Assembly (NCBI GenBank): GCA_050084985.1
Contig: JBITNC010000001.1
Coordinates: forward strand, 139,252,001 to 139,316,000
Length of the DNA stretch: 64,000 nt
Source: Nageia nagi
Lineage: Eukaryota > Plantae > Pinophyta
Reading direction: 5' to 3'
The translations under genes were made by a program, and so were the position numbers. The first letter of the stretch is position 1. Each line of letters opens with the position of its first letter. The notes below the pieces were generated by a model. The model saw nothing but the letters and a program-made list of their open reading frames with translations, did not search any database and was not told the DNA's origin. Shown here piece after piece: positions 23,981 to 48,932 of this stretch.

Positions 23981-25669
23981 AAAATTTAAAACTCACCAAC
24001 CTATTCTACGTATCTAGTCATATTGTTTGATTTTTTGCATGTAAATTGAAATGATCAGTCCACCGTAGTTGTAAAACCCCAAAAATCCATGTATGGACTT
24101 TTTTGCCAATGCATGTTTATCAAATGAGGTCTAGGCTTGTGTTTCTCTTCCAATTTATGCTTGCATATTGATTTGTGGGTTGCATTTATGTAATTATTTC
24201 TACATGAATAAATTTTCATCTTATTGTAGTCTTAGCAATGAAATATTCATACCCATTGAAATTTTCATATCATATTTGCATGAATAATGACAATAATGCA
24301 AGCTAGAAAAACCCTTAGAAGAATGCAGCACCAAAACCATATAGGAAAATAAAATTATATCTACTAATGAAGACGCGAATGTAGTATGGCATGGCATACA
24401 AATAAGATTTTAATAAAAAACCCTACATTCTTAAGGTTTTAATTGGAGTAATTGCAAAGCATGAACAATGTTAGTTCATATCAAGCATTGGTTGATGTAG
24501 AACATGTGTGTATATGCTAAATAATGCAATTAATACAAATGGGGTTGACTAATGCACTATCACTCTACTTTGTAAATATTGATGCATATATCAAAAATAT
24601 GGCAATAACATGTAACAAGAATGCAATATTGTTTACTTAGATTCTATATTCATTTTATTAATCAAAAAATGCACAAAGGATAGAGGATACATTCATAAAC
24701 AAGTACATCATTGGTGCCCTAGAATTGGCATGCCACTAGTGCCATAGGATGAGTGAAATTACAAACATGAACAAGAATGTAGTGATGAGTGAATAATCAA
24801 ATGATGAATATACATGCAAATTTATAGAATAATAGATGCACAATATAAATAGACAAAGCAAGTTGTAATCCTTCAAATGATCTTCAATTAATAATCCTTA
24901 TATGAGATTGAAATCATTATTTGTCCATGATTTATAGGTCGTCAAATGATGTCTTTATATATAATACAAGTTTACATGACTTTGATATTTTGACCCCTTG
25001 TACATTCCACAAGGGTCAAATACATGGCCTACACCTCTTCTATACATTTTTAATCTCTTTTTAAATAATACATTATTAAGGGATTAAAATGATTTATTAA
25101 ATACATAAAGTTTCATTTTGAGGCATATACATTTGCCCCTCTTTGGATGTGTTATTGAAGCAATGAAATTACATGTCCTTAGAAGAAGTGTATAGAAGAA
25201 ATTGTTTTGATCCTTTTGCTGATGATGATGATGAGGGTCCCTTGCTACCCCTTTTTGACTTGGATGCCCTAGGAAAGGTCCCTAAATGGTGCAACCAAGG
25301 AAAAATATGATGAAGAATATCTCTTCAGGAATGATGCTATGTAGATGATGGAAATGATTATGCTATTAGGTAGTTATATGGTCCCATATCCAATTTTGGA
25401 GATGGAAGATGTATTTTTTCCCCTTGTACTACTTCAACCATGAATCTGGCCATTATGTCATTTTTGATACCTAGGAACCATTTGCACTTACATCCATTCC
25501 TTGAAATAGAGAGGATTTGCTTTAAATGAGATGAAATAATGATGAAATGAACATCATTGGTGGCATAGGGAATAGTGTGTACATCGCTGATGGTGTGGAA
25601 TTCTATTATTTTTCTTTTACTCTTCAGGATGTAGATACTTGCAATCAATTTTTAGAAAAAAATAGGGTG

Positions 25670-26220
25670 TATGCATAGTGAGTTACATTGCCCATTGATA
25701 ATGATTCAATGTCAACAATGTACTTATGGTTGCATTGCTGATTTATCTTTTAAGTGAGTGAACTCTCACTAACAATGTTGTTGGCCATCGATGATCATAC
25801 ACTTTATGTATATGATCTAAAGACATTATGCTTTGTATTGAATCAAAGCAAAAATCATGCGAATACATAGTAAGTTGGATTATTCATTGAAGATGATCCA
25901 ATGTTAACATCTTGCTCATGGCTACATCACCAGTTTACTTTTAAGTGAGTGAACTCTCACTAGCTGTGTCATTGGCCATTGATGATCATACATTTGTATG
26001 TCTATGATCTAAAGATAGTATGCTTTATATGGGTTCAAAGCAAAAACCATGTAGATACATACCAAGTTGTATCATCCATTGGAGATGATCAAATGTCAAT
26101 ATCTAGCTCATAGCTGCATCATTGGTTTACTTTTAAGCAAGTGAACTCTGACTAGCTGTGTCATTAGCCATTGGTGATCATACATTTTATGTATATAATG
26201 TAAAGGTATTATGTTATCCT
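25670..26220. repeat. Three tandem ~190-bp units in the retroelement 3' internal region
   Basis: cttttaag..agtgaactct.acta.c.....ttggccat.gatgatcatac occurs at ~25747, ~25938 and ~26130. Confidence 0.8.
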
Positions 26221-29200
26221 TGTGAAAGATGAGTGATCAATGCCAATCATACCCACCTAGATAATACCTATAATACAAAAAAACATAAACCTGTATAGAT
26301 CACATCCATGAAAGAACAAGCAATGTAAATAGTAAGGATAAACTATAATATTTAGATGTTTGTACTATGGTCAATGCCAACCATAGTAATATAAAGTATG
26401 ATACATAAACTACTGTGATAGATAAGTCATAGCCTATGGATGATGTTTAGATGACTCACACTAGTGATGTCCTACAATCAATGCAATATTTGCTCGTGGG
26501 GGACCATGGCTTTGGAATAATTATCAGTATACCAATAAATCATCAATGTACCATATATTCAATTAATCATTAGCCTTTCATTTCAATATATTAATTTGTA
26601 TGAATTTTCAATATAAATCCACATCGTTGGTGGTGTGGTATGCCTATAATTTTATGATCATATTTCCAACAATTTTGATCCTTATCAATAAAATATTGCA
26701 TATGCATGAAAGAATCATAGAAATGAGTAGACATTGAATGAAATTTCAATATGCCCTATTTACAAAATTATTTGTAGGAACTACACATCGCTAGTGGAAT
26801 GAGATTTTCCATATCAAGTATAAAATTTTGAAATATAATAATCCATATCACTCTTTATTGCTTCTAAATGAAATAATATTACCAATTGCCATAAAATTTT
26901 CAAGATAAAGCATGAACTAGCAATATGTGATCATATATTCAATTTGTCTATACAATGATGATATCATTCAAGAGGAAGAATCCATTCAATTTGCATTGAA
27001 AATAGTTCAATTTAGATATTCAATACAATGCAATATTTTATAGATAATACCATAATTCTATAATATACCATATTTTAAAGGATACAATGGCCTTAAATTT
27101 AATTAGTAGAACAAGCATTTTGTTTGAAATAGAAATCATAAGAATAACATATACAATGTTTACTTTTCATACTACATAGTCAAAGAAAATTAGTGTTCTT
27201 AATTCATTAATGACAATTTTGCAATGAAGAGCATAAAACATGTGAGATAAGATACCTTACCTTTACTTACCTTTATGCCCCATGGATGGGAAATTTTTTC
27301 ACTTTACAATTTTGAATTTTGAATTTTGGCCTTCTAATTTTCAATATTTGATTTCCATCATGCCCTAGCTGAAATTGAAATTGTCCATAGCTGAAGTTAT
27401 ATCCTCTTTTTCTTAATTTCTTATGTGTATTTTTATTTTTGTTGTTATTATTGTTATTTTTGTTATGAAATGTGACTCATATGGGGTGTAATGACTAGAC
27501 CCATGATATGCAACCTACATGAAATGCACCTTATATGATATGCATCCTATATGATATGCAAAATTTAGAAACCATAGTACATTAGGGGGTGGTGGAACCC
27601 CCATTAGTTTAGCACATTTTGCTAAGAAAAATGGATTTTCTTTGCTTATATTATCCTTTGTATTGTGTATACCTTGGGCTACTACTCTCTTAAGAAGATC
27701 AATAAATTTGATTCATAACTCTAGAGGTAATGTATTATGTTGTTGCAAATGACTATTAAGGAGTAAAATCTTGAATAGATACTTATCAAAAGGACAATCT
27801 TTTTGTTTTCTATATTCTTGTAACCTAATCTCAACTAGATCTAACCGAACTAAATTTTTTCTTGTGTTTGCTTGACTAGCTAGATGTTTAGAATAAGAAC
27901 CATTATTTTCATTACTATTTTCACATCGTTAGTGTCCTACATGTAGTATGGCATGTCGTTGGTGATGTGCTTCCTCATCACAATTATCTTGAAATTTCAT
28001 AATTTTGTTTTCAATCCCTAAATTTGAATAATTTTGAGGGAGTTGATATTTACCTTTTGCAATCATGTCTAAAATTATAAGTTTCAAATCATGAAAAGAA
28101 TCTATAGCATGATCCTTCCATTGATGATAAGTGCAATAAACATCCTCATTTCCCATTGGAGTATCACTATCTTATGTTCTTCTTTTTAATAGCATCAATA
28201 AACCTATTTTCATTAGATCCCTCATAATTAGCATTGGTTGATGTCCACTAAGTATCTCAAAGTTGGGGACCTCTTGATTGGGTGGTGGGGAACAATTGTG
28301 GCTATCCTATTTGGATTGTTCTACGATATGAGCATCTTGTATTTTCAAAGTTTCTTGAGATGTTATTCTTTGCCAACTTTGTTTTAGTTTTGGTTGAATT
28401 TGGGGTTTAAGTTATGGTTTTTGTTGAGGTGTTATTTGAGCTTTTGGTTGAGGTGTTATTTGAGCTTTTGGTTGAGAAGATATTTTATTTTGTTGCTTTT
28501 GCATAATTTCCTTCTCAAATTTTTACATACAATATTACCTAGCATATGGATGTTCTAACAATTTATCTAATTCTTTTCTTATAAATGCATGATATTTTTC
28601 TTTCAATTCAAGATCATTATAAATTCCAAACATCCAAGAGGAATTGACTAACATATGTGCTTTAATTTTATGAAATTGATCTTGAAGTGTAAATTTTTTA
28701 AATGCAATATCATTCATTTCAAACTTATCCATAGTGTCCAAATTTAAATATGCATCACAATCAAATTCAGCCATATAATCATCAAAAATAATATTATCAT
28801 GCACTTGATTTTCTATAATACTTGGCATATCATCATTCATGGAAGTCAAGCATGAATTTGATAAACTTAATTCATTAAAATATTTTCTATTATGCATAAC
28901 ATACATTTATTTTTTAGAAAGTGGTGCAAATAAATCACTTATAACATTCAAACATTCAAACAAACCATTTTTAAATGCCTTATCCATGAGAGAATGCAAG
29001 AAGATGGAAAAACATTTTTTATATGAAAACCTCTAGAAATCTTGATAGAAATGCATGCAAAGGGCTAAACTTAATCTCAAAAGTTCCTACTATGATGACC
29101 TATGGGTTTGGCAAGTTTTAAGCATAAAATAAATCACCAAATAGTTGGAAAATGCCTTCAAAATGTATGATTTTCAAGGTAACATTTTCTACAAAAATAT

Positions 29201-29519
29201 TTTCAAAAATCACTCGAAATATACAAATCAAGACCTAGAAAAATTAGAAAAACTTCCCAATTATATGTATATATAGTTTGGAAAATTTTTTCTAATGCTA
29301 GATCTCACCAAATTGAAGAAAATGACCTTCAAAAACTAGGGTTTTCTAGAGAGACATTTTTCAAGAAAATAATTTTATTTGAAGCAATAAAAGTTTCCAA
29401 ATTAGAGAAAAGTTAATTTAACAAAAAAGGAAAATAAAACCAAGAGTTTATAATGCAATAATCCTCATAAAAAGTGATTCCCTAAAATGAAAAATTCTAG
29501 GGTTTATAAGAACAATTGA

Positions 29520-29528
29520 GGTTCACCA
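29520..29528 (-). promoter_or_regulatory. Primer-binding site complementary to the 3' end of plant cytosolic tRNA-Trp
   Basis: Plus-strand ggttcacca matches the recalled tRNA-Trp 3' end (...GGGUUCACCA). It is 3 nt from the LTR. Confidence 0.65.
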
Positions 29529-30319
29529 AAGTGTAAATGGTAAATAATGCAATTAATACAAATGGGGTTGATTAATGCACTATCACTCTACTTTGTAAAT
29601 ATTGACACATGTAATGTAATATAAATGCAATATTGTTTACTTAGATTCTATATTCATTCCATTAATAATAAAATGCACAAAGGATAGTGCATACATTCAT
29701 GAACAAGTATGCCACTAGCACTTTAGAATTGGCACGCCATTGATGCCGTAGGATGAGAAAAATTACAAATGTAAATGAGAATGTAGCGATGAGAAAATTA
29801 GAAAATAATCAAATGATGAACATACATGCAAACTTATAGAATAATAGATGCGCAATATAGATAGACAAAGCAAGTTACAATCCTTCAAATGATCTTCAAT
29901 TGATAATCCTTGTATTAGCTTAAAATGATTATTTTCTCATGATTCACTCATGATATATAGGTCATCAAATGATATATTTACATATGATATAAGTTTACAT
30001 GACTTTGATATTTTGACCCCTTATACATTCCAGAAGTGTCAAATACATGACCTACACCTCTTTTATGCATTTTAATCCCTTTTTAAATAATACATTGTTA
30101 AGGGATTAAAATGATTTATTAAATACATAAAGGTTCATTTTGAGACATCTACAATTTGAGAATAAAATAAAAATAGATAAATAATAATAAAATTAATTAT
30201 AATTACAAGCTTGTTAGTATGATTTTGAGGTGACTTGATAGATGCCATGCATTAGTTGAAACCAAAATTACACCAATTAGCATATGCTTAGGGAAGGAGT
30301 GAACACATACTCAAATGAT

Positions 30320-31680
30320 TATGTGAGGAATTTAAGATCTATAAATAACCCATAGTTTAGTCTGATAGCTTTAGAAATGGGTAGAGACTTGGTAAGAAGG
30401 GATCCCAGTTCAACAGAGGAGAGTAGAAAAAATATAAAAGTATAACATCTTCTTTGTGAGGGAGTTTTAGATAGCTTTATGAATGCATGTAGTGGTGAGG
30501 ATGAACAAATCTCACTATAAGTTGCAAAATCATGGAATGAAGATATTTTTAGTGTCAATGGTTTAGAGCTGGTATTCTCAACAAAGATAATTGCCCAAGC
30601 TACCCACCTACAAAATATTAGAATAGAAGTAATAAGGAAAGGCAAGGTGAATAAGCTTGCAACCATAGATAAGTTTTTCCAAACCTACGTGAAAGGGATT
30701 AGTTTGGATAAGTTTCAAATGGGGTATTACAAAATTGCATTCTAGAGCCTTGGAAGGAGATATCCAAGGCCTTGATGAGATATATAATACTTGAAGGAAG
30801 GTACAAAAAGCTCTATTCCCATAATTTTAGTCTTATCAACCACTTTGATTTTCCTAAAATAGATAGGGTGAATTTTACCTTCTTTATTTTTAATTCAATG
30901 AGCGATTCTATAAGAAAATTTAAGGTAAATTTAACACAAAGGCCAATTCATGGTGGAGTGATAAAACTTATGTATGAAATGGCCTTGAAAAATAGACCTA
31001 GGATGGTGCCAAGTGTAAGAATCTTAATTGGACACTAGGTATTCAACACAAGGGAGAATAAGAAACTTGGGGTTAAAATTTCTAACAAAGAGAACACCTT
31101 TGTAGCTAGTGTATTGAAATCAAAGAAGGGGGAATAAAGCTAATGAAGAGAAAGGAGAATCAAGAAAGGAGCATGCTGCAAGGGAGATAAGGTCTAGGAA
31201 AGGTAAAGCAAAAATTACATTTGGGTCTAATAACATTCATGGGGAGGAGATTGCATCATCACAGGGTAAAGAAATGGAGGACATGTCGAAGATAACAAAA
31301 TAAGATACAATTGTAACTAAGACCCTTATGCAAGCTAATAAGGTAGCTCTCAGCAATATGGTCACAACAAATATAGACCCCTTTTTCATTTACATAGCTA
31401 AAATTGGTAGATATGTTATAGAAATAACACATGAAATTACAATAAAGTAGGGGAAGGGGAAAAAAATAAGAATGGAGGATGTAGTGGAGTACAATCCAAT
31501 CTCAAAGAGAATAAGGAGCAACACCAAATGAAGGAGCAAGGAGGAAAAAGGAAAGGATAAAGGATCATTTAAAGGTGTGCAATATATTATTTTAGAGGAA
31601 TGAACACCTCCAACAAAATTCCAAATCAGAGGCATTCTAAAGATTTTTGGGGAAGTAGAAAAATAGGAGTGAAGCTGAAA
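30320..31680 (+). pseudogene. Degenerate ORF of a TE-associated family of unknown function inside the MULE
   Basis: Near-continuous reading 'LVRRDPSS..EGVLDSFMNACSGEDEQISL*VAKSWNEDIFSVNGLELVFSTKIIAQAT..EPWKEISKALMRYIILEGRYKKLYSHNFSLINHF..NFTFFIFNSM..PIHGGVIKLMYE', followed by a charged low-complexity tail. It resembles the extra ORFs that accompany plant Tat/Athila-type elements (recall only). Confidence 0.5.
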
Positions 31681-32149
31681 AGTAGGAGTGTTTTTGTGTT
31701 TTTTGTATGTTTTTTGGGCACTTAGTGTATTATTATTAGTTAGTGTATTGTTAGTATTTGTTGGGGCACTCAATATTTTTGGGAACCCTATTAAGGAATT
31801 CTATACACTTTTCTGTATGTTTTTTGGGAACTCCTATGTTTATATTTATTTGAGGTGTAAAGTTTTGTGCATACCCTTCCAAACTTCACATATTTTGAAG
31901 ATTAATACAAAAATAGCATCTAAATTGTATGTAAATAATGTGTTTTTGGTTATTCTTTACTAATATTTTTATTGCATTGCATCAAATTGTGTTTGCCTCA
32001 TGCATCTTGTTAAAACACTCGAGTGCTTTAAGATTATAATTCACATTTTAAATCTAATGGAAGTTTGAAAGCAATGAATGCCTTATACTAAGCTATAATG
32101 CACCTTATATGTTTAATTTTATGTATTTAACTGACACATAATTACATTG

Positions 32150-34330
32150 AAATAGCATAGAATTTTTAATCTACCTACCCAAGATATTAAAGAAAAATAG
32201 CTATTTTGTCAAAATAATTTAACTCGGACAAGAATACCATGCATAAAAGGAAAGATAGATTCTATTACCACAATACCTTTATTCAGGTTAATTAATTTCA
32301 AAAAGGGTGAAGAATCTAATCCTGATGCACAATGCATGTTTTTATGTGAGAAAAAGGAAAAAATGTCTAAAAGGCAATTACAAATCAAAGGCCATCATAA
32401 GTTAAATGTAAGAAAATATTATTTTTCCAATTTCAGTGTTGCATGATCTTATCTTTGCAAGTAATATTATTCTAAATTTGTTATTTTTTATGTAGTTATT
32501 GGTGTGCTTATGGCTATAAAAGCACAAGAGATATGACCCACCTCCTCTAAAATGTAAGAAAAATCTTACAAAGAAAAGGGGTTGTCAATGTCATTTTATT
32601 GTTAAGGTATTTGAAAGTTTAATTGATGTTGAATTTATTACATACAATAAATTTGAACATGTTGCACTTGATGGACAACCCTACCATGGAGCCATGATAC
32701 AAGTGAAATAAAAAATGGAGGGGCCAATTTCACTCCACATATGTCAAAAGAGACTAGTTCTTTGATTGAATCATTGCTAATAGATGGTATTATAGTTGAT
32801 ACAACATGTAATTTCCAATTTATGTAAGAGTACTTTGAAAATGTACCTACAATTCGAGATCACTACATTTTAAGTAGGGATGTTCAAAACATATACAATA
32901 GATTGATGATGGGGAAGGTGTAGAAGGCTAAAGATGAAGCCATTAGTATGAACCAATGGTATCGAGCCAACAAGGAAAGGTTTTTTATATATAAGAACCC
33001 TAACCATGAAATTGGAAAATTTGTTATTAGTATTCATACAAAATGGATGTTGGATAAGATGGTGGAATTATCCTGCAACAACATAATTTCAATAGATTCA
33101 ACCTTCAGTACAAATTTGTACAGTGTAAGTATTGCTGACTTTTTGTATAGTTATTATTTTTGCATTGTTGATGTTGTTCATATATTATTTTTTGTGTATT
33201 GCTAATTTTTTTGTATTACTAAACTTTGATACATTATAGTACCAATTTTACACATTGCTTGCATTTGATTCACAACAAAGTTGTCTACCTATGGATTGGG
33301 TTATCACATACAAAATGGTGTTGATGACATAGCTAAATGGCTTGAAATATTGAAATAATGTTGTCTAAAATGCCAACCAAGTTGGCATGTGAATGTTTTT
33401 CTTACTAATGATGTTGTTGTAGAAATCTAGGCCATCAGGTTTGTGAACTGTATTTTGTTTCAAAAAATATGCAAAACAAGTGTATTGTTTCAAAATATAT
33501 AGTTTTTTTCTCTTGTTCATTTGGTAAATTTATTTATGTTATTGTATGCATGTCCAAAAAAGTGTTTAGTTAGAGGCATTTATTATGTGTCTGGCATGTG
33601 AAACTAGCTTGGTTAAACAATTTCTACAACAAGGCATCAAGTAAAGAGATTGGAAGAAAAATATTTGCAAGGCTAGATGAAATAGTGTCCAAATGAATGG
33701 ATGATACATCTATGAAATTAGTTGTATTTAAGTTTTACATTGATTTCCATAACGAGAAGGATTTAATAGATTACTTGATTGGTAATTGGTTTGATGTTGA
33801 TAGGATTCGTAAGTACAATCATAACAAATCGAATATTTTTGGTTATTATTTTTCCCCTTTTCAAGCATTTGTGAGTTTTATTCTACATTTTATATTGTAG
33901 GTATGTGGGCAAAATGCTATTAAAAAAATTTCCATTCCAACCAAGATATAAATTCAGCCATAAAGGTAACACATGCAAGCATGTATACAAAATCATGAAC
34001 ATGTCAGTTGAAACTATTAATTTTCCTAACTATACAATGAAACCTACCCCTAATACACCTCATTATCCTACCAACATATCCTCACCTCACGGTAACATCT
34101 CTCAAGGTTAGGAACATTAGGTTGATCATTCATCTCCCAAGATATTAGATGTAGATGATGGAAAGGTATTATTAAAATTATTGTTAGAGCAATCTTATGA
34201 TAATCCTAGAAGTAAGAGGTAGTTTGCAAGTTTGGTTATGGATATGCAAGCTAGGTACTACCAATTTTGATTCCCATAATATTTTGATGTAGCTGAAAGG
34301 TTAAAAAGAAGAATAAAGTGTTAGATGAAT
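32150..34330 (+). pseudogene. Spliced MULE (MuDRA-like) DDE transposase with SWIM finger, degenerate
   Basis: 'KRGCQCHFIVK' WRKY/GCM1-like DNA-binding motif at ~32575. First catalytic Asp in 'IISIDSTFSTN' (GAT 33095-97). 'NVFLTNDV' at ~33395. CxxH 'LLCVWHVKLAW' at 33586-97. 'NQDINSAI[K]' is the E-motif position at ~33950. SWIM 'GNTCKHV' at 33965-33985. GT..AG introns at ~32408-32495, ~33125-33239 and ~33809-33900. Confidence 0.88.
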
Positions 34331-34839
34331 CCTTCAAGTAAAAACAAAAGTGGGACTTGAGAGATGAAATCATGTGACTTAATTATTGATGCCCAACAAA
34401 CTCTTACTTATGTCTTTCCAAGATTAAAAAAGTTTGGTCAACCTAAGATAACACAATTTCAAGGTAAACACTTTATGATTTAATTTAACTTCATTCATAG
34501 AAATTATTTTTCAAAAAATCTAATTTGAATGCTACTTTTACTCTTTCTCATAGATTATCATGCCAAATTTGAATCAAAATATAGTCCTTTGTCATTCTCG
34601 ACCATAGCTGAATAATCTAATGTAGGGGAAAATCATAATTAGAATATTGGGCATAGGAGTCAAGATAAATGTTAAACTTTACAATAAATACATTAATGTT
34701 TTCTATACTTTTGACAATTGGGATTGCATATTATTTGTAAAACAATGGTGAAGGCATACCTTAGCTACCAACTAAGTTGTTTATATCCTCTTTATGGATA
34801 TGAGATATTATATCTTTGAAAGTAAGAAATAGTAGTGAT

Positions 34840-35030
34840 GTTCTCTATATACACCAACCATATATTTGATATATGCCTAGCATATATCTTGCTCTACACC
34901 CACCATATATCTTGATATCTTTAAAATGATGTTTGCTATATACTCCCACCATATATTTGATATATGACCAACATATATTTTTCTATACGCCCATCATATA
35001 TTCATATATATGCCCATGATATATCTACAC
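34840..35030. repeat. Internal cluster of the TIR motif (ATATA(T/C)(G/A)CCCA(T/C)CATATAT)
   Basis: About 7 diverged copies, e.g. ctatacgcccatcatatat and atatatgcccatgatatat. This is the same motif and orientation as in the right TIR. Confidence 0.7.
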
Positions 35031-35034
35031 AATG

Positions 35035-35420
35035 TTAAGTTGTTTATGAAATGATTTTGGCTTGGATTTCAATATTTATCTTATGTTATTTATCATATGA
35101 TTTGTATTGAATTATGTATATTTTGGGCCCAAATTTCTATATTACTCTTTAGTTGTTTATCATATGATTTGTATTGAATTATGTATGATTTGGAGCCAGA
35201 TTTCTACATTAATCTTAAGTTGTTTATCATATGATTTCTATTGCATTTTGTTGGTTATGAATTCAATAGAACCATTGCATGTATGATTTGTATTGAATTA
35301 TGTATGACTTGTAATGCATTATTCATGGTTAAGAATGTAGCATAACCATTGTAATTTATACATTAAACAATATTACAAATTCTAAATTTAGCATAAGCAT
35401 TGCATGTATGATTTGTATAT
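35035..35420. repeat. Tandem ~68-bp AT-rich repeat between the convergent MULE genes
   Basis: gtt.tttatcatatgattt.tattg.att recurs at ~35085, ~35152 and ~35219, with partial copies at ~35282 and ~35407. Confidence 0.75.
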
Positions 35421-36789
35421 AGTTAATTATATATGTACAAAAAAGGGCTTTCATAAGTACGATCAATTATATAGGCATATACATAGTCAGATATTCACCA
35501 TTAACTATACATAGTCAAATATAAATTGTATCCCAAATATTATGGTCATAAGCACTTTGATGGCCAAAATATAGAAATTCAAATATATAATAACAATTAC
35601 AATTACAATGTCTTATTTAGGATTATACATGGATAATGGGATGGGAATGAAGCATATTTTTTTATTTTGTGAGAAGAATACCACAATTGGTTCATACATG
35701 AATGGATCTTTTTCATCTACAGTCTCTTTAACATCAAAATCCATATTGTTGTGGATGTGCTTATAAAATGTTTTATATATGTTCCTCCATGATTTCCATT
35801 ACTCCTTATTATTCCCATGTAGTGGGATGGTTTCAAATATAAATGAGTGTTGTCCCTGATAATTATCTACCTCCATAAGCATTTTGTTGTGTAGAGACTT
35901 GTATTGGAGCATTTTGATGGATTTATAATTAATTCTCTTCATTTTGATCGATTCCTTAATGTCTCCACTATCCATTCCTAGGGCCACCTACCATAAAATA
36001 CAAAATCTATAAGTTACCACATCAAAAGTAAAATAAAGTACATTGAACGATAAATTAAAGTACCCAACATTGTACAAATTTGCATATTAGGAATATTCAA
36101 AAAAACAAAACTAAACAAAAATACATTACTCAATCTTACTATACATTTTTCATTTACATCAACAAAGACTTGTTGATTTATGTTGAAATCTATTATCCTA
36201 GTATATGTAGAAATGTTTTGATGTACAAAAAATGTCGTATGTTTGATTTTACACATAACATTTTGAAATGGCTTGGTCCTTTTTTGTTTTCCTTATTTTC
36301 TAGCAAGGTATAAGTCCTAAGTGGTGTTTTCCTTCCAAGAGAAACCTTGGAATTATACCAAGCATCTCTTTTGCCTTCATCACTTTTCACAATAGGAATT
36401 ATCTCAATGGTTGATCTAGATCTAGATCTAACAACTAGTGTCTTTCTGAATGATCCTTTATTATCTTTTGGTATGTTTTCTTCATCAATTCCTTACATGG
36501 GAGAAGGAATAAAATAATGTTGTTAGGTTGAGGTTACTAAATGACTAAGATAAGAGTAAAAAATAATTAAAATATTAATGCTAATACCCACCTATTTTCA
36601 TCACCCTCCACTTTTGTGAGAGTGAAGTCCACCGTCAAATTCTTTGTTAGGTTGATGTTATTTAATGCACCATATTTGAAGTCAATAACCTAGTCATGCA
36701 CACATTTTTTGTTAAAAATATAGAAAAGTAATATTTACAGCAATCCTTACTCTATTTTACTAGAGTGTACTCATCCTCCCTTTTTTCCC

Positions 36790-37400
36790 TTTTTCATTCT
36801 TCCATACTTCTGTATGTTCATCAAACTTCATAACATATCCTTCTTTATAGTTCTCTTCCAATCTATGACCAAGAGTATAAAAGATGTAACATGTATGTTT
36901 CTCAACCTTAAAAAATAAAAAATGATCATCCCATGCACCAATGTAAATTCTAGGAGTTTCTAAAATGGAATTCAACATTTTTTCAATATTTTTATCCTTT
37001 AGTATTTTGAACTTTGACATCAAACCCTTTGGCTTAAGTAAGCCCATGTTAGAATACATAAAGTTAGTAGTCATGGAATATAAATTATCCTCAATAATGT
37101 AATCCAAATAAAAATGCCCATCTAGATAGTTATATATTTTAAGGATGGAATCTATTTTAGCCTGTTCCATTCTTCACATCCATCTTGTATCAGTGCATTG
37201 AGTTGTTTTTGACTAGGAAAAACACTAGGGTGTGCATGTTACCAACCTATGAGTAGTACACAATAAACTAAATAAGCAACCAACCCTCCACCAACTTGCT
37301 GGTATATCAAAGAAAAATAAATTTTAGATTTTAAAATAAGTTTCTCATTCAACTTCTCTAAACAAAAATCCTACCATGTGGCCATAACATCGTCACTACA
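36790..37400 (-). pseudogene. Domain homologous to the C-terminal region of the plant NT-C2 family (AT3G11760/AT5G04860-like); putative papain-fold protease/deubiquitinase
   Basis: Translation across two stops and a frameshift: 'SDDVMATW*DFCLEKLNEKLILKSKIYFSLIYQQVGGGLVAYLVYCVLLIGW*HAHPSVFPSQKQLNALIQDGCEEWNRLK../NYLDGHFYLDYII..IYIGAWDDHFLFFKVEKHTCYIFYTLGHRLEENYKEGYVMKFDEHT'. This is colinear with the recalled family consensus 'FFASIDQR..AGESACTALVAVIADW..MP..SQFDSLIREGS.EW..FPDKHFDLETV..VYIVSWNDHFFVLKVE..AYYIIDTLGERLYEGC.QAYILKFD'. Confidence 0.75.
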
Positions 37401-37959
37401 TTGACCATGTTCTTCCTCTGCATGTAATTCCTCATTGTCCTATTTTTATGCATGAAAAATCATATTAGGATGCCCTTAAACTCAAATAAACCTATTGACT
37501 AAAATATGTATAATATTCTATTCATGTAGCAATTCAAGGCTATGTATAGGCTACCCTAATGAGCACATAATTAAGAATCAATAGCCTATAGTTCTATGGG
37601 AATCAAGTTTTTTGGTACATGGGGAAAGTATGATTTTTGACATGGATTTGAAGCACATGTGGAAGTATTATTTAAATTTGGTGACATCATGAATAATGCA
37701 ACATAATATTCCATGGTTTCAGTCCAACCTTGTTTAGGTTCAGTGTATGGGTTTTTCAAAAGAAGGCCCTAAATACTTGTAGGCAACCTTGTCAACATTC
37801 TTCAGGCATGTGCTAACAAATATAGGGGTTGTAGGAAAAGCTATGGAATTCATCAAAGAGTACTTTGATTGTAGGATATGCACATGGGTTTTCAAAAAAG
37901 GACCTATAGTATTGTATATGTATGCAAAAAATATGTACAAACATGAAAAATATTCCCTA

Positions 37960-38440
37960 CAAATAGCATAAAGAATACATGCACTATGTCATTTTTGGCA
38001 TCCTATGTTGCCTATGTAATGGCCTGGGTCCACTTTGCATTATCTATGACATGCTTTTTTGGTAACCCTACCTCTTCATGACCTTCTCCTTCATTTATAT
38101 CCTAATTCTTGTCCATTCCTTTATTTGCATCCTCATTTTGCTCCATTCCTTTATGCATGTTATCGTGTATCATAAAGAAAATTATGTATTAATGAACATT
38201 AATTTTGAAATTTTTTCTTCAAATTTGATTAAATTGTGCTATCTATGGAATGAAGAATACCTATTGTGTGCCATTCATGGCATCTTATGTGGAATGTGTA
38301 ACGTTTTGGGTCCACGTTGTAGCATCTTCAATAGGTTATTCTTGGAATCCTGGCTCTTCATGACCTTCTCCTTCATTTACATCCTCCTTCTACTTCATTA
38401 CTTTATGCATGTTATCCTATATCATAAATAAAATTATGAA
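37960..38440. repeat. ~282-bp tandem duplication (small acidic exon plus intron)
   Basis: ctcttcatgaccttctccttcattta.atcct occurs at ~38072 and ~38354. Both copies are followed by ctttatgcatgttatc...tatcataaa.aaaattatg. Confidence 0.8.
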
Positions 38441-38549
38441 ATGAAAACTTAATTAAAAAATATACTTGTTATGAAATGAACAGTAAACATTTGATATAAA
38501 ATTAGGAATGATTATACATGTTGGGGTTATAATAAGAGGTTGGCAATCA

Positions 38550-39225
38550 AGTTACGGTGATTTAGTTTCCAATAACATAAAGCCACGAATTCCAAAGTAG
38601 TAGCATCCACATTGGATATGGGTAGCATGTAATCACTAAAATTACATGATATCACCTCTATCAAAATATGCCCCTATCCGATAGTGCTACCATGGCATGT
38701 TTCAGTAGGATCATCATTGTGCACATTGCCAGACCCCACTATATTCCCAAGAGGGTCAAGGAGATGCACCTTTTGACTCTTTCTAATAGAAAATAATCCA
38801 TAATTTATGCATTATTGTGGTTGTGGACTAGCATTTTCTTGCATGGGACATGAAGTCAACAATTAATTAAAAAATATAATTATTATGAAATACAAATATC
38901 ATTAATTACATAAATGTTTGATATAAATTTAGGAATGATTATATCTATTAGGTTATAATAGATTGTTGGCACTGAGGTTGCACCAAGTTAATATCCCATA
39001 ACACAAAGCCCCAAAGAGATTATCCCAATGTCGTAGCATCCCTCTTGGGTATGGGTAGCTTGTAACCTATGAAATTAATTGTTGTCACCTCTACTAAAAT
39101 ATGTCCTTCACAAATAGTGCTACCATGGCATGTGCCTACAGGATCATCATTATGCATATTTCTAGACCCCACTATATTACTAAGAGGTTTGAGGAGATGC
39201 ACCTTTTGATCCTTTTTGGTAGCAA
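38550..39225 (-). pseudogene. Two tandem Tnp1/En-Spm-like (Transposase_23/DUF8039-type) domains from a ~430-bp exon+intron duplication
   Basis: Copy 1: 'QKVHLLKPLSNIVGSRNMHNDDPVGTCHGSTICEGHILVEVTTINFIGYKLPIPKRDATTLG'. Copy 2: 'QKVHLLDPLGNIVGSGNVHNDDPTETCHGSTIG*G/HILIEVISCNFSDYMLPISNVDATTLE'. Both fit the V.L...IV..G....DP....HG..+G.....V.V......LP.P....TLG pattern. Confidence 0.65.
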
Positions 39226-39590
39226 ATGGATGAATATTGCCATGTCCTACCTTCTTGTCAAATAATGATGATTTGTAGGCCTTCAACTGAATACAAAAAT
39301 ATAGAATTTAGTTAAAATTAAATTAGAAGAAAATGGAGTTACCTAAACATTCACCTCATGATCAAAATTAACCTCATCATGTACATTTAACTCATCATCA
39401 AAATTCACCTCATCATCAACACCTTGATCATTTTTTGTAGATTAAAAATCAATTACACATGAAGAATTTTCATAATTTGATGAATCCTTTTAATAATTTT
39501 TGTGATGTCAACAATGAACAATATTGTATATTTGTACAAATATATAATAGCATATTTTTTTGATTTTTTTTAAAATTCTTATTGAAATGT

Positions 39591-42500
39591 TGATCCATAA
39601 TCCTTAAGAATTAAAATTTCAGTGGATTCACCTTCATTTTTCTTATTTTGTTATTCTTGGAAGTATTGAAATTGGAGTGACATATTTTGGAACATTGAAG
39701 TGAGATCAACAAGTTGCTTTTCTAAGTTAGAACCCCCTTCATTAGTCATGGTACTCTCTCTTTTCTTCCTTAGCAAAATACTTGAACCAATCTCATGATC
39801 TCCTTCTACAATTTCCTCTCCTCCTTTTTTACTTTGCAACATGGTATTCATGCAAAACAATTTCCAAACACCTAACAACAAAACTCACAAAATATAGGTT
39901 AATCCTAATTTAATCTCTTGCTCTAATACCTATCATGATCCATAATCCTTAAGAATTAAAATTTCACTTTAGCTCTCAACTTGGACTAGTCCGCACTTAA
40001 ATTTATTCAAGTGTTTGTAAGGAAAATTAGAGAGAATATTTGCAAAACCAAAGAAGAAATAGAACTCCAAGCACACAAAAGATAAGCAAAATTTACCTTG
40101 GTTCACCTAGTGTGGACTACTCCAACAATCTTAGCTCTCTTTTCAAAAAATGAGTTGAATTCAAATACAAAAAGGACCTCCATAATCTTCTAGCCTCTTC
40201 TCACATTCACACATAATATTTAGCTCTCAAATTCATCTCCACAATTGAACTAATCTCTCTAAAAAAATCCTCGTTTATAATAAATCCAAATTGTCCCTTT
40301 TTTATACAAAATTTGGGCTCAATTTTGGAGTATTTTACAACTAGGAAGAATTAGAAAAAAAATAATTCTAAGTACCCGTTTGGCTCCTCTATCTTCAGTT
40401 CAAATTTGGGCTCAAATGGTTGAGCCATATCTAAATAGGAGCCTCTAAAGATAAAAAATAATGCTCTTTGGTTTTATAGGTTTAAAAATAATAATAAACC
40501 CAATAATAGGATTTTAAACCAATTAAAAATAACATCACATCTTTAAAACATCCAAATACATACAAAAAATCACTTTAATAGGCAAATCCAATAATATGGT
40601 GCCACTTGGTAGCTTGCAATCTAGCCTCCAAAATGCCCCCATGCAATTTGGTCTCCAAACACCCCCATTTCATTAAAAACATTGCATACTTCAAAATGCA
40701 ATTTCTTATGGTGCCACTTGGTAGCTTGTAATTTGGCCTCTAAAATGCCCCCATGCAATTTGGTCTCCAAACACCCTCCATTTCATTAAAAACATTGGAC
40801 ACTTCAATTTTGGAGTATTTTACAACTAAGAAGAAAAATAAAAACACTATTTCTAGGTACCCATTTGGCTCCTCTATCTTCAATTCAAATTTGGTCTCAA
40901 ATGGTTGAGCCAATCTCTAAATAGGAGCCTTTGAAGACAAAAAATAACACTCTCTAGTTGTACAGGTTTAAAAATAATACTTAGCCCAATAATAGGATTT
41001 TAAACCAATTAAAAATAACATCACAACTTTAAAAAATCCAAATACATACAAAAAATCACTTTAATAGGCGGATACAATAATATGGTGCCACTTGGTAGCT
41101 TGCAATTTGGCCTTTAAAATGCCCCCATGCAATTTGGCCTCCAAACACCCCCCATTTCATTAAAAACATTGCATACTTCAAAATGCAATAACTTTTAATC
41201 ATGAAGTCAATTTCATGAACCATAAAAAGTGCTAGAAAGAGAAAAATGAGATCTACAACATGATGTAATAAAACAAATATGAATAGGACTTGAAAAATTA
41301 CTTTTTCCTTTTTTTGTGCCTCTTATAGTTTTTAATAAAAAAATACCCAAAATTAGAATCACATATCTCCCTCAAACTAAATCGGATTTTTGATTCAAAA
41401 GAAGTTTTGAAAAGCTAATGAAGAATAGAACATACTAAACATACTAAAAATGAAATTTATAAATATTAAAGAGATCCAAATTTTGGATCATTACTACCCA
41501 TTGAGAGAGATCTTTTGACCCCAAAAGTACTTAGGATGGTGGAATAAGGTGAGGGTAGAGTTCCCTCACTCGATCAACTGCATGCCACTTGGCCTTGTGT
41601 GGGTGTTGACCCTTTATATAATATGCCATACCTCATGTTCACCACTACAATATGACCTCTTCTTCTTTTCCAACATAGCATCCTTAGCTAAAACACTTAT
41701 GTATTTAGGGGCTGAATCCTCCATAGATGGAAACATGACATCTATATCTTTTGCAACTAAGGTTGGTTCATAAAATTTCAAATTATCCATATTAACAACA
41801 TAATAAATCTACATATAAGGTGGCAAGTCTAACCAAAATTCATTTTCACCAACTTGATCAATGATATTAAAAGGCCCATACCTTATTGGCTTCAACTTTT
41901 TCCCCTTACCATGTTGTCTTTCCTTGCTAAGATGAAGCCATACTTGATCCTCAACCTAAAATTTATGATCCACTCTATGATGATTACTCCTCTCCTTGTA
42001 GTTTTCTTGACTCTTCTCCAACTATTCTTTTACCTTCTTATGTATCACCTTGATCCTCTCAATGAAGTTCTTTGCTTGCTCCTCCTCACTATGAAGAACA
42101 CTATTTCCATTGCTAGATTAAACTAAAGCCAAATCAAAAGGTGACTATAGAAAATAACCAAAACATGTATCAAAAGGTGATTTGTAAGTAGAAGTGTATA
42201 GCTTGATTATATGCATGTTGTATATAGCTAAAATGTTCATCCCAAGTATTAGGATGCTTACCATAATAACCTCGTAAAAGGTATACCACTATCCTATTTA
42301 CTACTTTTATTTGACCATCTATATGTGGATGAAATGTTGTACTCCTCTTTAACTTAGTGTCCATCCTTTCCCACAAAGAAGTCCAAAATCTACTAAGAAA
42401 CTTGGAATCCCTATCAAAAATGATATAAGTAGGAAGATCAAAATGTACCCACACATAAGTAAAGAAAAGATTAGCAGCCTCTTGACCTGTCAATCTTTTT

Positions 42501-45500
42501 ACATGGAATTAGTTTGCACATTTTACTGAATCTATCCACAACCATATACAAATAATCATTTCCTATCTTAGAAATAGGTAAACCACTAACAAAATCCATA
42601 TAAATACTCTCCCATGATCTTGTAGGAAAAGACAATGGTATATAGAGACCCAACTTCTTATTTCTAGGTTTGCTAACACTAGATAACATACAACCTCTAA
42701 TATACTTGAATACATTTTCTTGCATTTTAGGAAAATAACAATACCTTCACAAATTAGCAAGAAATTTATCAATACCAAATGAAAAACTAATCCATCATGT
42801 ATTTGAAAATCAATATTTCCATTTTTCTTTGGATTTATAATAATAAGAGAACCACATGGTGATGTGTGTAGTCTAATGACTCCTTAATCTAGCAATTCCT
42901 TAATTAGTTTCTTAATTTTTTCATTTTCCATAAAAGAATATATATAAAAACCAATATTAGGAATTGTGACATTAAGATGTAAGTGAATCTCATGTTGTAT
43001 ATCTCTTTTAGGTGGAATCTCTTTAGGTATTTGAAATAAAACCTCAAATTCATAAATTACCTCTTTAACTTCATCTTTGTATTGTGGTTCACATTCATCA
43101 AGTGCCTTAATGATTTCCACTTCATTTGAGAAATCAACATTGCAAGTGCAAACATTTTTCCTATATTAATATGTCTCTTTGATTTTCCTATAGTAATTAG
43201 AGAAATATTCTTTTCCTTATTTTGATGAGAACTAACGATATATTCAATTCTATCCTTAATGAGTCTATATTTATTTTCCTTTCTATAAAACAAAACATGC
43301 AAGCATAATCCCATAAATATTCAAAGGTACAACATCAAGTCAAATCTCATCAATGTTATTCCTGTTAATTCCAAATGTCAATTTGCATTGTCTAGTTACC
43401 TCTAACTTGGACTTTTTATGAACCCATCCTAATGGATAGGGGAGTTGATGTGGTTGAGTAGTGAGTGTAAGTGATCTGACATATTCCTTAGAAATTAAGT
43501 TAACTTATGAACCAAGATTGAACAATGTATCAATCCTTGTTTTCTTAGCTTGTACCTTAATGTGAAAAAGATCAATTTTCTTCGTTTCTTCATCTTTAAT
43601 AGATGAATTATGCAAGACATACATGCCATTTTCTCATCTACATCAGAACCATTGTCTACTTCTTTTTCAATAGTATTTGATTGTTTTTTTTGCTCTTTAA
43701 ATTTAGGGTATAATTTAGGATGCAATTTCTAACATTTAGCCTCTAAATGACCTTGTTGTTTACAATGAGTACATACATCTTTAGACTTTTCTTTTTGTGT
43801 AGTAGATGTGGTTTTCACTTTTCCCTTATTCTTTCCAAAATTATTAGGATTAGAAGCATTTTTCTTTTTATTTTCTTTAATAAATTTTCCTCTTTCTTCT
43901 AAATGTGTGGCTTGTACACAAACTTTATCCAAATTAGTTGGATCAAACATCAACAAAGTATATTATAAATAGTTTTTTAAACCACCAATATACTTTAGAA
44001 GAGTATCTTGGGAATTAAGAGAAATACGTAACATAGTAGCCCTTTTTTTGAAACTTGGTTATGTATTCTTGCGCACTTTACCCTTTACCTTGATGGAATC
44101 TTTTCCATTCCATTACTTCTTTTTGATGGTATCCCAATGGATAAAATTGATCTCTAATCAATTGTACAAAATGAGTCCAAGAGGCAATACAATCATTAAG
44201 TGTTTCACTCTCACTTTTCATACAATTTTGCATACAACTTTCCCCCCAAATAAATGCATTCCCACTCATCTTAATGGTAGCTAATTGGATTTTATCCTCA
44301 TGTTTTACAATCTTTTGTATTCTACAATACACTTCAATTTGCTTAATCCAATGATATAATTTTTCAACATTCACTTCTCCATCAAAAGTAGGAAAATCAA
44401 AATTTACTTCAAGCTTCAAAGGAGAACTTTCAAAATAACTATTTGCATTTTCATCACCTAATCTTTTACCTTCACTAGATTCACCTTCATTTTTCTTATT
44501 TTGTTATTCTTGGAAGTATTGAAATTAGAGTGACATATTTTGGAACATTGAAGTGAGATCAGCAATTTGCTTTTCCAAGTTGGAACCTCCTTCATTAGGC
44601 ATGGTACTCTCTCTTTTCTTCCTTAGCCAAATCCTTGAACCAATCTCATGATCTCCTTATACAATTTCCTCTCCTCCTTTTTTACTTTGCAACATGGTAT
44701 TCATGCAAAATAATTTCCAAACTCCCAACAACAAAACTCATAAAATATAGGTTAATCCTAATTTAATCTCTTGCTCTGATACCTATCATGATCCATAATC
44801 CTTAAGAATTAAAATTTCACTTTAGCTCTCAACTTGGACCAGTCCACACTTAAATTTATTCAAGTGCTTGTAAGGAAAATTAGAGAGAATATTTGCAAAA
44901 CCAAAGAAGAAATAGAACTCCAAGGACACAAAAGATAAGCAAAATTTACCTTGGTTCACCCAGTGTGGGCTACTCCAATAATCTTAGCTCTCTCTTTAAA
45001 GTGAGTGGAATTCAAGTACAAAAAGGACCTCCATAATCCTCTAGCCTCTTCTCACATTCACACATAATATTTAGCTCTAAAATTCACCTCCAAAATTGAA
45101 CTAAACTCTCCAAAAAAATCCTCCTTTTCAACACATCCAAATTGTCCCTTTTTTATACAAAATTTGGGCTCAATTTTGGAGTATTTTACAACTAGGAAGA
45201 ATTAGAAAAACACTAATTCTAGGTACCCATTTGGCTCCTCTATCTTTAGTTCAAATTTGGGCTTAAATGGTTGAGCCAATCTCCAAATAGGAGCCTTTGA
45301 AGATAAAAAATAACACTCTTTGGCTATACATGTTTAAAAATAATACTCAACCTAATAATAGGACTTTAAACCAATTAAAAATAACATCATAGCCTTTAAA
45401 AATCCAAATACATGCAAAAAATCACTTTAATAGGTGGATCCAATAATATGGTGCCACTTGGTAGCATGCAATTTGGCCTTCAAAATGACCCCTTGCAATC

Positions 45501-45919
45501 TGGCCTCCAAAATGCCCCCATGCAATCTAGCCTCCAAAATGCCCCCATGCAATCTGGTCTCCCAATGCCCCCCATTCCATTAAAAAAATTGCATACTTCA
45601 AAATGCAATAACTTTTGATCACGAAGTTGATTTCATGAACCGTAAAATATGCTAGAAAGAGAAAAATGATCTCTAAAACATGATGTAATAAAATAAATAT
45701 GAATAGGAACTTGAAAAATTACTTTGTTTTTTCTTTTCTTCTTTGTGCCTCTTGTATTTTTAATAAAAAAATACCCAAATTTAGAAATCACATATCTCCC
45801 TCAAATTGAATCATATTTTTGATCTGAAAGAAGTTTTAGAAATTTGATGATTAATAGAACACACTAAATATACTAAATATGACATTTCTAAATATTCAAG
45901 AGATCCAAATTTTAGATCA
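39591..45919 (-). mobile_element. Ty3/gypsy LTR retrotransposon lacking RT/RNase H, with a tandem (three-LTR) remnant
   Basis: Perfect TSD AATGT (39586-90 / 45920-24). 5' LTR 44789-45919, second LTR 39936-41490, and a 31-bp LTR end at 39591-39621. PBS gctctgatacc at 44773-44783. Gag ORF 44078-44419, CCHC 'CTHCKQQGHLEAKC', protease remnant 'IDTLFNLGS*VNLIS', and integrase ORFs 42471-42725 and 42170-42493 ('SWESIYMDFVSGLP', 'IIFDRDSKFLSRFW'). Confidence 0.92.
40320..41190. repeat. Internal duplications that lengthen one LTR (1555 bp versus 1131 bp)
   Basis: caattttggagtattttacaacta restarts at ~40320 and ~40805. tatggtgccacttggtagcttg occurs at ~40595, ~40707 and ~41081. Confidence 0.85.
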
Positions 45920-48059
45920 AATGTTGTTTTATTACCTTCTATTGTACGATAAATTTCACATACCCCTTTCTAAATTCATGTTTATAACCAATCAATTTTC
46001 TCTTTTTCTTTATATCCTCAAAATTATACTCTTCCTATTTATTTGCATTTTAGCAACAACTAGTTCTGGTAATATTTTTCTATCTTTAACATCATAATGA
46101 AAATAAAGATTACCTAATAATCTATAATGCTTACTATTAAATTGTCTCATCATCACCTTATTTATATCCTACCTATATGCTATATATTTGTTTTGGTTAT
46201 AGGATGATGGTTTTTTAATGCCATAGGATGGCCTCCTACCTCTTGGAAGAGGAGGAATTGGTGGTGCACCTTCATGATATCATCTCCTATGTTGGTATAA
46301 CCTTTTCCTATCATCCTTTTGAACACCATTGATCAAACCACAATTCCTAATAAGGAAAAAATATTAAATTCTATCACCCTTCCTAGTGGCTATCCATTCT
46401 CCCACAACAAAATCTACAAATACATCTCTATAATCAGGTACCCCATGCAAGCTCCTAAACTCCTCCTGATAAATTTGTACCATGTGTTCTTGAAAAAAAT
46501 AAATAGAAGATCAATATGTACTTGTACTACCCACTCAAAAAAATAAAAATCAAGTGTGTATTATTTAGCACATACCATTGATTAGCATGGAAATTTCCAC
46601 AACACACTTCTAAATTATGAGTGCAACTTCCTTGCAATTAAAAAAAAAAAGAAACATCTTCAAAGTATGAACTTGCAATAGGGTTTATCAATACATCAAA
46701 GACTAAGTAAAAAGTATTTTTTTGTCACATGTTGTGGTTTACAGTACTACCTAGTAGACATGATTCAAACATAGTTTCATGGAATGCATTGATTTAAGGA
46801 TATTCAATTCAAGGATACATACATCAAGGATGCCCTTAAACTATTTCATCTGATGAAGCACTTGAGTAAGCTATCAAATTTATTGCCAAGATGAAATGTA
46901 GGTTTGTCCTAGGTACTTTTACATTACATAAGAATGTAGGAATTGGGGTATTTCTGGAAGCATTCTTTAATTTGGTGGAGACTAAATGTGCTCCATCTTA
47001 TGTTGTTATTTCAATTTTTTTATGCAAAAGTGGGAAACTATGATGATGATGAATGAGTATGGACATTGATGAAAGATTGAGGAATTAAAAAATACATGGA
47101 TGTAGTTGGATAGAAGTTAAATTAAGGGTAAGTGGAGTAAGATTAAGGAATCAAAAAGACAACTAGATGTAGTTGGATTTAAGCTCCTAAGATTGTAAAT
47201 GGAGTAAGGAAATTAATGAGAGATTGAGGAATCAGAAAGAAACTTGGTTTTAGTCGGATTGAACTTAACTATAGAAGAATAACATTATTAATTTTGCTTT
47301 CCCAAAATTTTCAATATAATGCCTAAAAGTGGAAAATTTGTAATAGGGTGTATAAATACATCAAATATTGATTAAAATAGTATTTCCTTTGCATATATTT
47401 TTTATTCTTGTAAGAAAGATAGTTCTAACTAGAAAAAACACCCTAATTATGAATTTGTATAGTTATCGAACCCTAAATCATAAACCCTTTACATTATTGA
47501 ATAATTCCCCATATTAGAAAATTTAAAATAGGATTTCTTATTAAATCAATGGTTTTAACTAGAAAAAAAATCCTAACTATGAATCTATATAGTTATCAAA
47601 CCTTAAACCCTACACATTATCGAACAATACCAAAAATTGGGAAATTTGAAATAGGGTTTATTTTTAAATCAATTTATCTTTACAAGTGTATTTCTTTCAC
47701 TATGTATAGAATCGATGAGAAAAAAACCTAACCAAACAAATTTAACAGGAATGCATACTAGGATAATCATCATGCCCCTTTTGGTAGAAAGCTCTATGCA
47801 ATGGTATCATACAGAATGCTCTACAATTTCATAGGATCTGGTTAGGGTTTTTAGCTAATGAATTAAAAAAAAATGATAAATTCATTTGAAGAAGAAATAA
47901 ATTAGACAAGGATATGATCATATGAGTACCAATATGAGGGCTTGTCTTGGAAGCATCGTATAGGATGGTCTACAAATATTTTAGGGTGAGATCATCTTCT
48001 TTTGTTTTGAATTATAGAGAAAATAAGAGTGGTGGATATATGCTCAAAAGTTAAACTTT

Positions 48060-48932
48060 ATATTTATAGATCTTGTTATACACCCATGATAGGTGCACTA
48101 TACACCTATTCTATAACTAAAATTATTGCTATATGCCCATAATATAAGTTCTATACACTCATTATATATCTCATTTAAAAATTTAAAGTTTTTTAGTTCT
48201 CACTATACACCCATATTATAACTGCTATACGCTTGTACTATATCTACATTCAAAAATTTAAAAATTTTCTATTCTTAGTTATCTCTATATGCCCCTCTTA
48301 TAACTACTATATGCCCATAGTATATCTCATTAAAAAATGTAAAAAATTTCCATTCTTAGTTCTCATGATATGTCCCTTGTACAACTGCTATATGCCCATA
48401 ATATATCTCATTCAAAAATTAAAAAAATTCATTCTTAATTATCTCTATACGCCCACATTATGTTAAGCAATATATGCCCATCATATATCTAGTTTTAACA
48501 TTTTGAGGTATTTCATGTTTCTTGCTATATGCCCATGATATATTTGATATATGCTCATGATATATCTATTCAACAAAATCTAATTTTTTTCAATTTCTCA
48601 CTATAAATCCATGATATAGGTCCGATATATGCCTATCATATATCTTGTCACACCAATGGATTTTTTTCAGCAGCTGTTGATATATGCCCATTATATAGCT
48701 TCACTATATGCCTATGATATATCTAGATGGATCAACATCGTAGGAAGGTAATAGAGTGGTAGAATTTGATATAAATCCATCATATTAGTTTTGATATATA
48801 CCCATAATATATCAGAAATGAAGTGATGCAATCGAGCAGAGGTGGTGGTGGTGGAACTGATATACACCCATTGTTATTTTTGATATACATTCATAATATA
48901 TGTGCAAATTTGGTTAGAGGATAGGCTCTTCC
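48060..48932 (-). repeat. Right MULE TIR with motif arrays and ~4 tandem ~80-bp units
   Basis: Reverse complement of the left TIR. The unit ctatatgcccata.tatatctcatt.aaaaa.tt.aaaa..tt..attcttagtt is repeated over 48130-48450. Confidence 0.9.

Follow-up and report, generated by a model that had tools for sequence, protein, structure and literature searches.

A dead Mutator-like transposon copy in Nageia nagi carries a DUC-type catalytic domain, likely captured from a host gene

The 64,000-nt stretch of Nageia nagi DNA studied here (the window) contains a dead Mutator-like element that belongs to a multi-copy family. Its second gene holds a whole catalytic domain of the DUC type, i.e., that of the plant DUC deubiquitinases, without a C2 domain. 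We hold with moderate confidence that this domain was likely captured from a host gene and likely kept active before the element decayed. This reading is based on the anatomy of the element, its empty site, the colinearity with a second copy (L001), relatives in a DNA run (X1) and the clade formed by the element-type sequences. It further draws on a catalytic triad that is present as a mosaic, the Cys-Ser pair of one copy (P0150), the retention of shared residues in comparison to neutral simulations, and a reverse gene orientation like that of KI-MULEs. It is weakened by the lack of a complete triad in any one copy, by Tyr at the Cys position in two of three copies and by the dN/dS between copies, as well as by single-copy simulations that are mostly not significant and a stop shared with L001. 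All features are listed in Table 1.

Table 1. Features of the element and of its insertion site (window positions)
Feature	Position	Strand	Basis or remark
Uninterrupted twin repeat (empty site)	17796..18391	+	10-mer occurs once; alignment to both flanks
Left target-site duplication, 10 bp, TTTTGGATAT	23277..23286	+	9/10 bases identical to right copy
Mutator-like DNA transposon, 25,646 bp with later insertions	23287..48932	.	TIRs, target-site duplication, empty site, copy L001
Left TIR with subterminal short repeats	23287..23951	+	23287-23899 vs 48932-48298: 79%, 642 columns
Insertion in window copy, missing from L001	24515..30188	.	L001 joins 30189 to 24514
Decayed multi-exon Mutator-type DDE transposase	32200..34500 (limits approximate)	+	ESM Atlas neighbours, motifs by eye
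Likely last exon of second gene, basic	36240..36491	-	open in window copy and L001
Exon with DUC-type catalytic domain	36590..37439	-	AG acceptor, GT donor; donor conserved in L001
DUC-type papain-fold domain	36613..37376	-	homology; broken by 5 stops and 3 frameshifts
Catalytic Asp position	36877..36879	-	TAT (Tyr) here; Asp in L001 and P0003
Catalytic His and aromatic gatekeeper Phe, intact	36919..36924	-	His CAT 36924-22; Phe TTT
Catalytic Cys position	37272..37274	-	TAT (Tyr) here; Tyr in P0011; Cys in P0150
Likely upstream exons of second gene	37600..39243	-	duplicated ~80-aa motif, two acidic exons, one further exon
Nested LTR retroelement insertion(s) in 5' part of second gene	39618..45919	-	repeats 39618-40668/44471-45521, 92%
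Right TIR	48077..48932	-	inverted-repeat match to left TIR
Right target-site duplication, TTTTGTATAT	48933..48942	+	partner of left copy

The element shows long terminal inverted repeats (TIRs) and a 10-bp target-site duplication with one mismatch, as is characteristic of Mutator-like transposons, whose duplications are about 9-11 bp long. A 9/10 match has a chance of about 1e-4 at a fixed position. For a grape MULE, the accessible text of PMC2528002 gives a duplication of 9 bp. The insertion is directly evidenced, since the flanks of the transposon match one continuous stretch that holds the 10-mer once, i.e., 17796-18245 matches 22844-23286 and 18242-18391 matches 48944-49093. This stretch likely represents the partner LTR in a Ty3/gypsy element that was hit by the transposon; zinc-knuckle and integrase-Zn fragments are found between the two LTR-like repeats. 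Among the later insertions, the nested retroelement region includes a gag at 44081-44503, while direct repeats (83%) go with the insertion at 24515-30188.

The window also holds repeats outside the element. A direct repeat of about 1.85 kb (52805-54643/56685-58525, 78%) probably represents the LTRs of another old retroelement, and an inverted repeat at 13130-13577 is MITE-like (170-bp arms, 74% complementary, 108 bp apart). A tandem array on the minus strand (59106-60215) consists of units of about 135 bp, each with a fragment of the PPR motif (Pfam PPR at E 0.0012, which does not reach the curated cut-off), and resembles a satellite or a decayed gene built of PPR sequence.

Two converging genes are found in the element. 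For the transposase, the segment 32924-33124 is nearest to ZSWIM1-3_RNaseH-like and MULE clusters of the ESM Atlas (0.95/0.93/0.92, recognition 2408). PF21056 is annotated for 13-38% of the members of these neighbour clusters and PF10551 for 12-20%; given that the families are found on just 12-38% of cluster members, we treat this placement as a lead only. By eye, the motifs SIDSTF, TND and CVWH can be identified, and in L001 also TNSAIESYH and a SWIM-like stretch, which we take to be the DDE, CxxH and SWIM-like signatures of such transposases. Pfam provides no match for the broken transposase pieces of the window or of L001.

The second gene has multiple exons and is encoded on the opposite strand. 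The two instances of its duplicated upstream motif (38981-39220 vs 38545-38784) are 61% identical. A CACTA TnpA-type accessory beta-barrel was considered for this motif but is not claimed, given that both Pfam and ESM Atlas are blank for the motif and exons at 37600-39243 and that the predicted structure reaches a pLDDT of 35. Among the 140 open stretches of the window, Pfam yields no match to Ulp1 (Peptidase C48).

Beside the two genes, short TIR-like repeats are found inside the element between the converging genes (window 34836-35030; L001 2242-2414). A decayed coding-like stretch for which Pfam is blank lies upstream of the transposase (window 30189-31663, plus strand; L001 8167-9673). PPR-like fragments are located at 46747-46938 (plus strand, PPR_2 E 0.00035) and at about 31950-32014 (minus strand), the latter also in L001. 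PPR fragments, the plant-specific protein family and the low CpG and CHG content together suggest that the host is likely a land plant and probably a gymnosperm, which fits the origin of the window.

The initial annotation had recognized a homologue of the C-terminal domain of a plant NT-C2 family, which is well supported by our searches. A phmmer search with a 130-aa open stretch (P0002) among 1.84 billion representatives results in 116 matches with E<=0.001, the best being P0003 (E 5e-20, 51%) and P0004 from Cryptomeria (E 3e-13). Most of the long matches carry NT-C2 (PF10358; 59 matches scanned) and come from plants that range from Chara to grasses, while the closest ones are the short Logan proteins P0003, P0011 and P0106. 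A near-length protein search provided four matches among 179 candidates, one of which (P0150) is new. When frames are read through with X at breaks, the window scores 134 bits against the host-domain profile and covers positions 2-244 of 246; the top score is 1.3 bits among the 145 listed of 200 shuffles. Pfam reports nothing on the DUC-type domain of the window. In total, six element-type sequences are available, i.e., the window copy, L001, P0003, P0011, P0106 and P0150. A full-length intact element-type protein was not found by word-based searches (165 candidates; 7,993 scored), which are weak searches.

With regard to the extent of the domain, the minus-strand pieces were assigned correctly, but the lower limit has to be moved. 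That is, the domain is longer than first described and ends at about 36613 including its last strand, where LTVDFT corresponds to LQIEFH of the hosts. In-frame stops are located at 37373, 37241, 37154, 36754 and 36692, and frameshifts near 37135, 36780 and 36705. The latter two are absent from L001 and thus reflect decay. That the window copy has no visible NT-C2 domain, as noted before, is in accordance with our search: a profile of 16 host N-termini gives best E-values of 0.89 for the window and 0.26 for L001, next to 5e-23 for the domain profile as positive control, where the 5' end of the second gene is interrupted and decayed and other exons lie upstream of the domain exon. Since no NT-C2 was found, we refer to a DUC-type domain rather than to a DUC.

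To judge the element beyond this locus, metagenome contigs were scanned with the element-type alignment, which resulted in one confirmed locus (L001) out of 265 pattern matches. L001 has the layout of the window and is colinear over the domain's C-terminal half as well as over the 3' region and the transposase, with 79-87% nucleotide identity from 37015 down to 30189 and then from 24514 to 23978. Its domain keeps His, Phe and Asp, runs in one frame to the last strand with two stops, and scores 93 bits; the Cys half was lost through rearrangement. One stop codon is common to both copies. Because L001 carries the domain in the same layout, the domain belongs to the element family and is no accident of the locus. 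A run search identified one DNA run (X1, share 0.07), whose contigs cover 30/30 bins of 35500-38500; RNA runs were not among its results, which bears neither way on expression. Of 238 aligned contigs, 198 are less than 95% alike (mostly 80-95%), and some repair breaks of the window, e.g., the stop at 37241. This spread fits many relatives or copies; X1 is a metagenome and hence provides no copy number.

The codons at the catalytic positions, namely TAT at 37274-72 (Cys), CAT at 36924-22 (His) and TAT at 36879-77 (Asp), are as read initially. It had also been proposed to look for a restored triad in other copies, and each residue is indeed present somewhere. Among the element-type copies that cover the respective position, Cys is kept in one of three (P0150), His in four of five (the window copy, L001, P0003 and P0106, with Tyr in P0150) and Asp in two of three; the gatekeeper Phe is found in all five covering sequences. 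All three catalytic residues together are not observed in any single copy, i.e., a complete triad emerges only when fragments are combined into a mosaic.

P0150 shows Cys-Ser as in the hosts, where the window copy and P0011 have Tyr-Leu, each change being a single transition in a genome depleted of CpG (o/e 0.11) and CHG (0.24). Two adjacent chance reversions in P0150 are unlikely, and the founding element therefore most likely carried the catalytic Cys. From these residues and the mosaic we infer an intact Cys-His-Asp triad in the founder. The Tyr common to the window copy and P0011 may mark a sub-lineage without Cys. This relates to an alternative that we consider unlikely, namely that the domain, after its capture and selection, lost the catalytic Cys in the lineage of the window copy before this lineage spread, leaving at most a ubiquitin-binding pseudo-enzyme. 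Such a history would account for the shared Tyr-Leu, all the more since the G-to-A change lies outside CG/CHG context, such that two independent changes would be less expected. It also has a precedent in inactive insect VTD domains related to Helitron VTDs, as described in the accessible text of PMC9741609. On the other hand, P0150 has Cys-Ser and belongs to the same clade, neither of our trees groups the window copy with P0011, and homoplasy is common, given that a conflicting Asp-to-Tyr change is common to the window copy and P0150.

Phylogenetic placement was assessed in two midpoint-rooted trees, in which the root on the long branch carries no direction of capture. The first one comprises 108 of 118 rows (quick search; short host rows and P0106 dropped) and places the window copy, P0011, P0150 and P0003 in one clade (SH-aLRT 100) with a stem of 2.49 changes per site. 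The same four sequences together with L001 again form one clade (stem 2.2) in the second tree of 45 rows with 40 hosts, from which eight long-branch hosts were left out. That is, in the comparison of element and host homologues suggested by the initial annotation, the element-type sequences are a clade of their own.

Several short and divergent DUC paralogues without apparent C2 are present in Cannabis sativa (P0008, P0076, P0151-P0154), of which P0008, P0151, P0152 and P0154 have an intact-looking Cys-His-Asp. They join the element clade in trees, probably via long-branch attraction. In P0004 (Cryptomeria japonica LOC131066220), a DUC domain with intact triad follows a region resembling a coiled coil and a WRC domain, which stand in place of NT-C2, an architecture not mentioned in the accessible text of the DUC preprint (bioRxiv 10.64898/2025.12.04.692294).

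The trees also bear on the earlier suggestion of a transposon origin of the host family, i.e., that DUC goes back to a VTD-like protease carried by a transposon or virus, with the ancestral state preserved in the element. The element clade indeed branches off outside most of the hosts with a long stem, and the host domain P0049 shows a VTD-like papain fold with the Helitron-encoded VTD as closest solved fold (a result for the host domain only). Still, we regard this origin as highly improbable. The hosts span algae to angiosperms, while the element-type sequences seen amount to a set of five close relatives, and the midpoint root gives no direction. Furthermore, the triad order differs from that of VTD, no shared sequence is detectable, and none of 35 pattern matches in IMG/VR was confirmed as a viral relative.

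Given the placement of the element-type clade, we compared substitution patterns. For the domain, dN/dS between the window copy and L001 is 1.19 (135 codons). The values of three transposase exons are 0.73, 1.48 and 1.94, where the alignment of the first exon slips frame near its end; since these exons scatter alike, dN/dS cannot tell cargo from core genes. The divergence between copies is neutral, as would be anticipated for dead elements, and identity among copies is not higher in conserved than in variable columns (5 pairs, p 0.5-0.88). Residues common to at least two copies, on the other hand, match the best host in 70% of 46 conserved but only 14% of 36 variable columns. Neutral simulations with matched conserved-column retention (44 out of 175 run) show a variable-column match of 38 +/- 12%, and 0/44 are as low as 14%; the test is crude and assumes that the donor's kin are sampled, failing otherwise. 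For single copies, the respective counts are 9/41, 7/42, 1/35 and 4/44, i.e., most copies are not significant. Changes of at least two bases are needed for 25/90 shared differences from the host consensus vs 8/63 private changes. Taken together, the shared residues suggest that the stem of the element family was under selection.

The neutral divergence between copies would equally be expected if the element had captured, as Pack-MULE cargo, an exon from a divergent host DUC paralogue that is missing from the sample, and had copied it without function. Passive cargo is picked up by the element, as the PPR fragments inside it indicate, Cannabis and Cryptomeria have divergent host paralogues that lack C2, and neutral change at conserved sites inflates the stem lengths of the trees. 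We nevertheless deem this scenario improbable, since the whole domain is colinear within a multi-exon gene with splice sites conserved in two copies. In addition, the shared residues concentrate at host-conserved columns beyond the neutral simulation, and multi-base changes are enriched among shared differences.

For an active captured protease, the loss of C2 would free the enzyme from the plasma membrane. It could then deubiquitinate the transposase, or else chromatin and repair proteins located at the element, and this activity might protect the transposition machinery or shape break repair. Similar roles are suggested for Helitron VTDs (PMC9741609) and Ulp1/OTU domains (PMC2836005) in the accessible texts, and have likewise been put forward for Ulp1 in KI-MULEs. 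Tentatively, we propose that a DUC domain was recruited by a family of autonomous plant Mutator elements, lost its membrane anchor and became fused to an accessory protein specific to the element. If true, this would be the first accessory protease of a plant DNA transposon described to cleave ubiquitin instead of SUMO. It would also independently repeat, within the same fold group, the recruitment of VTD by Helitrons, and the protease might have an altered linkage specificity and act in the nucleus against silencing or degradation.

As far as the literature was searched, the transposon context of the DUC-type domain is the new part. No paper on a transposon-borne DUC was found, in agreement with the novelty assumed in the initial annotation; subscription literature was mostly outside the scope of this search, and preprint supplements could list such homologues. 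The accessible texts of PMC5735166 and PMC13547354 added nothing on deubiquitinases. The function of the host DUC proteins is already known, and all element copies seen are dead.

The plant DUC deubiquitinases comprise AtDUC1 (At2g25460), AtDUC2 (At3g11760) and AtDUC3 (At5g04860), with structure, triad and assays published in December 2025 (bioRxiv 10.64898/2025.12.04.692294), which allows a direct comparison of the element version to its host counterpart. The accessible preprint text states a C2 domain for all embryophyte DUC members and reports no plant transposon-borne one. Homology extends along the whole catalytic domain with the same order Cys...His-Phe...Asp, and the element's His-Phe precedes Asp by 15 residues, which equals the spacing of His441 and Asp456. 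In contrast to DUC, the element version is without C2, transposon-borne, broken, about 30% identical to the best host, and shorter by two residues in the loop before Cys. According to the same text, R290 and R308 of AtDUC1 provide K63 preference. At the corresponding places, 28 and 10 residues before Cys (mapped by spacing only), other residues are found in the copies seen; a changed linkage specificity is thus a possibility, while decay could equally explain the lost Arg.

A likeness to herpesviral tegument deubiquitinases had been put forward as well. It holds for the papain fold of the host domain P0049, but not for triad order, gatekeeper and sequence similarity. VTDs (BPLF1/UL36/M48; zebrafish Helitron DrT1-VTD, PDB 8ADD) have a Cys-Asp-His triad on one strand and no aromatic gatekeeper according to the accessible text of PMC9741609, i.e., the triad order differs and the gatekeeper is found only in the element-type and DUC domains. 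Identity is 10-15%, the family profile has 0 PDB matches at E<=1, and Pfam is blank for the domain. VTDs are borne by animal Helitrons, the element-type domain by a Mutator element; the word 'plant' occurs 0 times in the main text of that paper.

The closest architectural parallel is, by analogy of gene layout, the Ulp1-bearing KI-MULE/VANC gene. According to the accessible texts on Ulp1-bearing MULEs (KAONASHI/KIU-VANC; grape, melon, rice; PMC13317346, PMC2528002), these are also Mutator elements with a second gene reversed relative to mudrA; this gene carries a captured cysteine protease for ubiquitin-like modifiers, the function of which is described there as unknown. Theirs is of Ulp1/C48 (SUMO) type, while the one found here is DUC-type, and KI-MULEs are without TIRs, which are long in the present element. 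Ginger1 and Helitron OTU/Ulp1 domains (PMC2836005, accessible text) likewise represent ubiquitin/SUMO proteases borne by DNA transposons, but they are fused to transposase or RepHel, stem from animals and belong to other protease families. DNA transposons thus repeatedly carry proteases for ubiquitin-like modifiers, i.e., Ulp1 in MULEs and Ginger as well as OTU and VTD in Helitrons, and the DUC-type domain in a plant Mutator element would represent a further independent recruitment.
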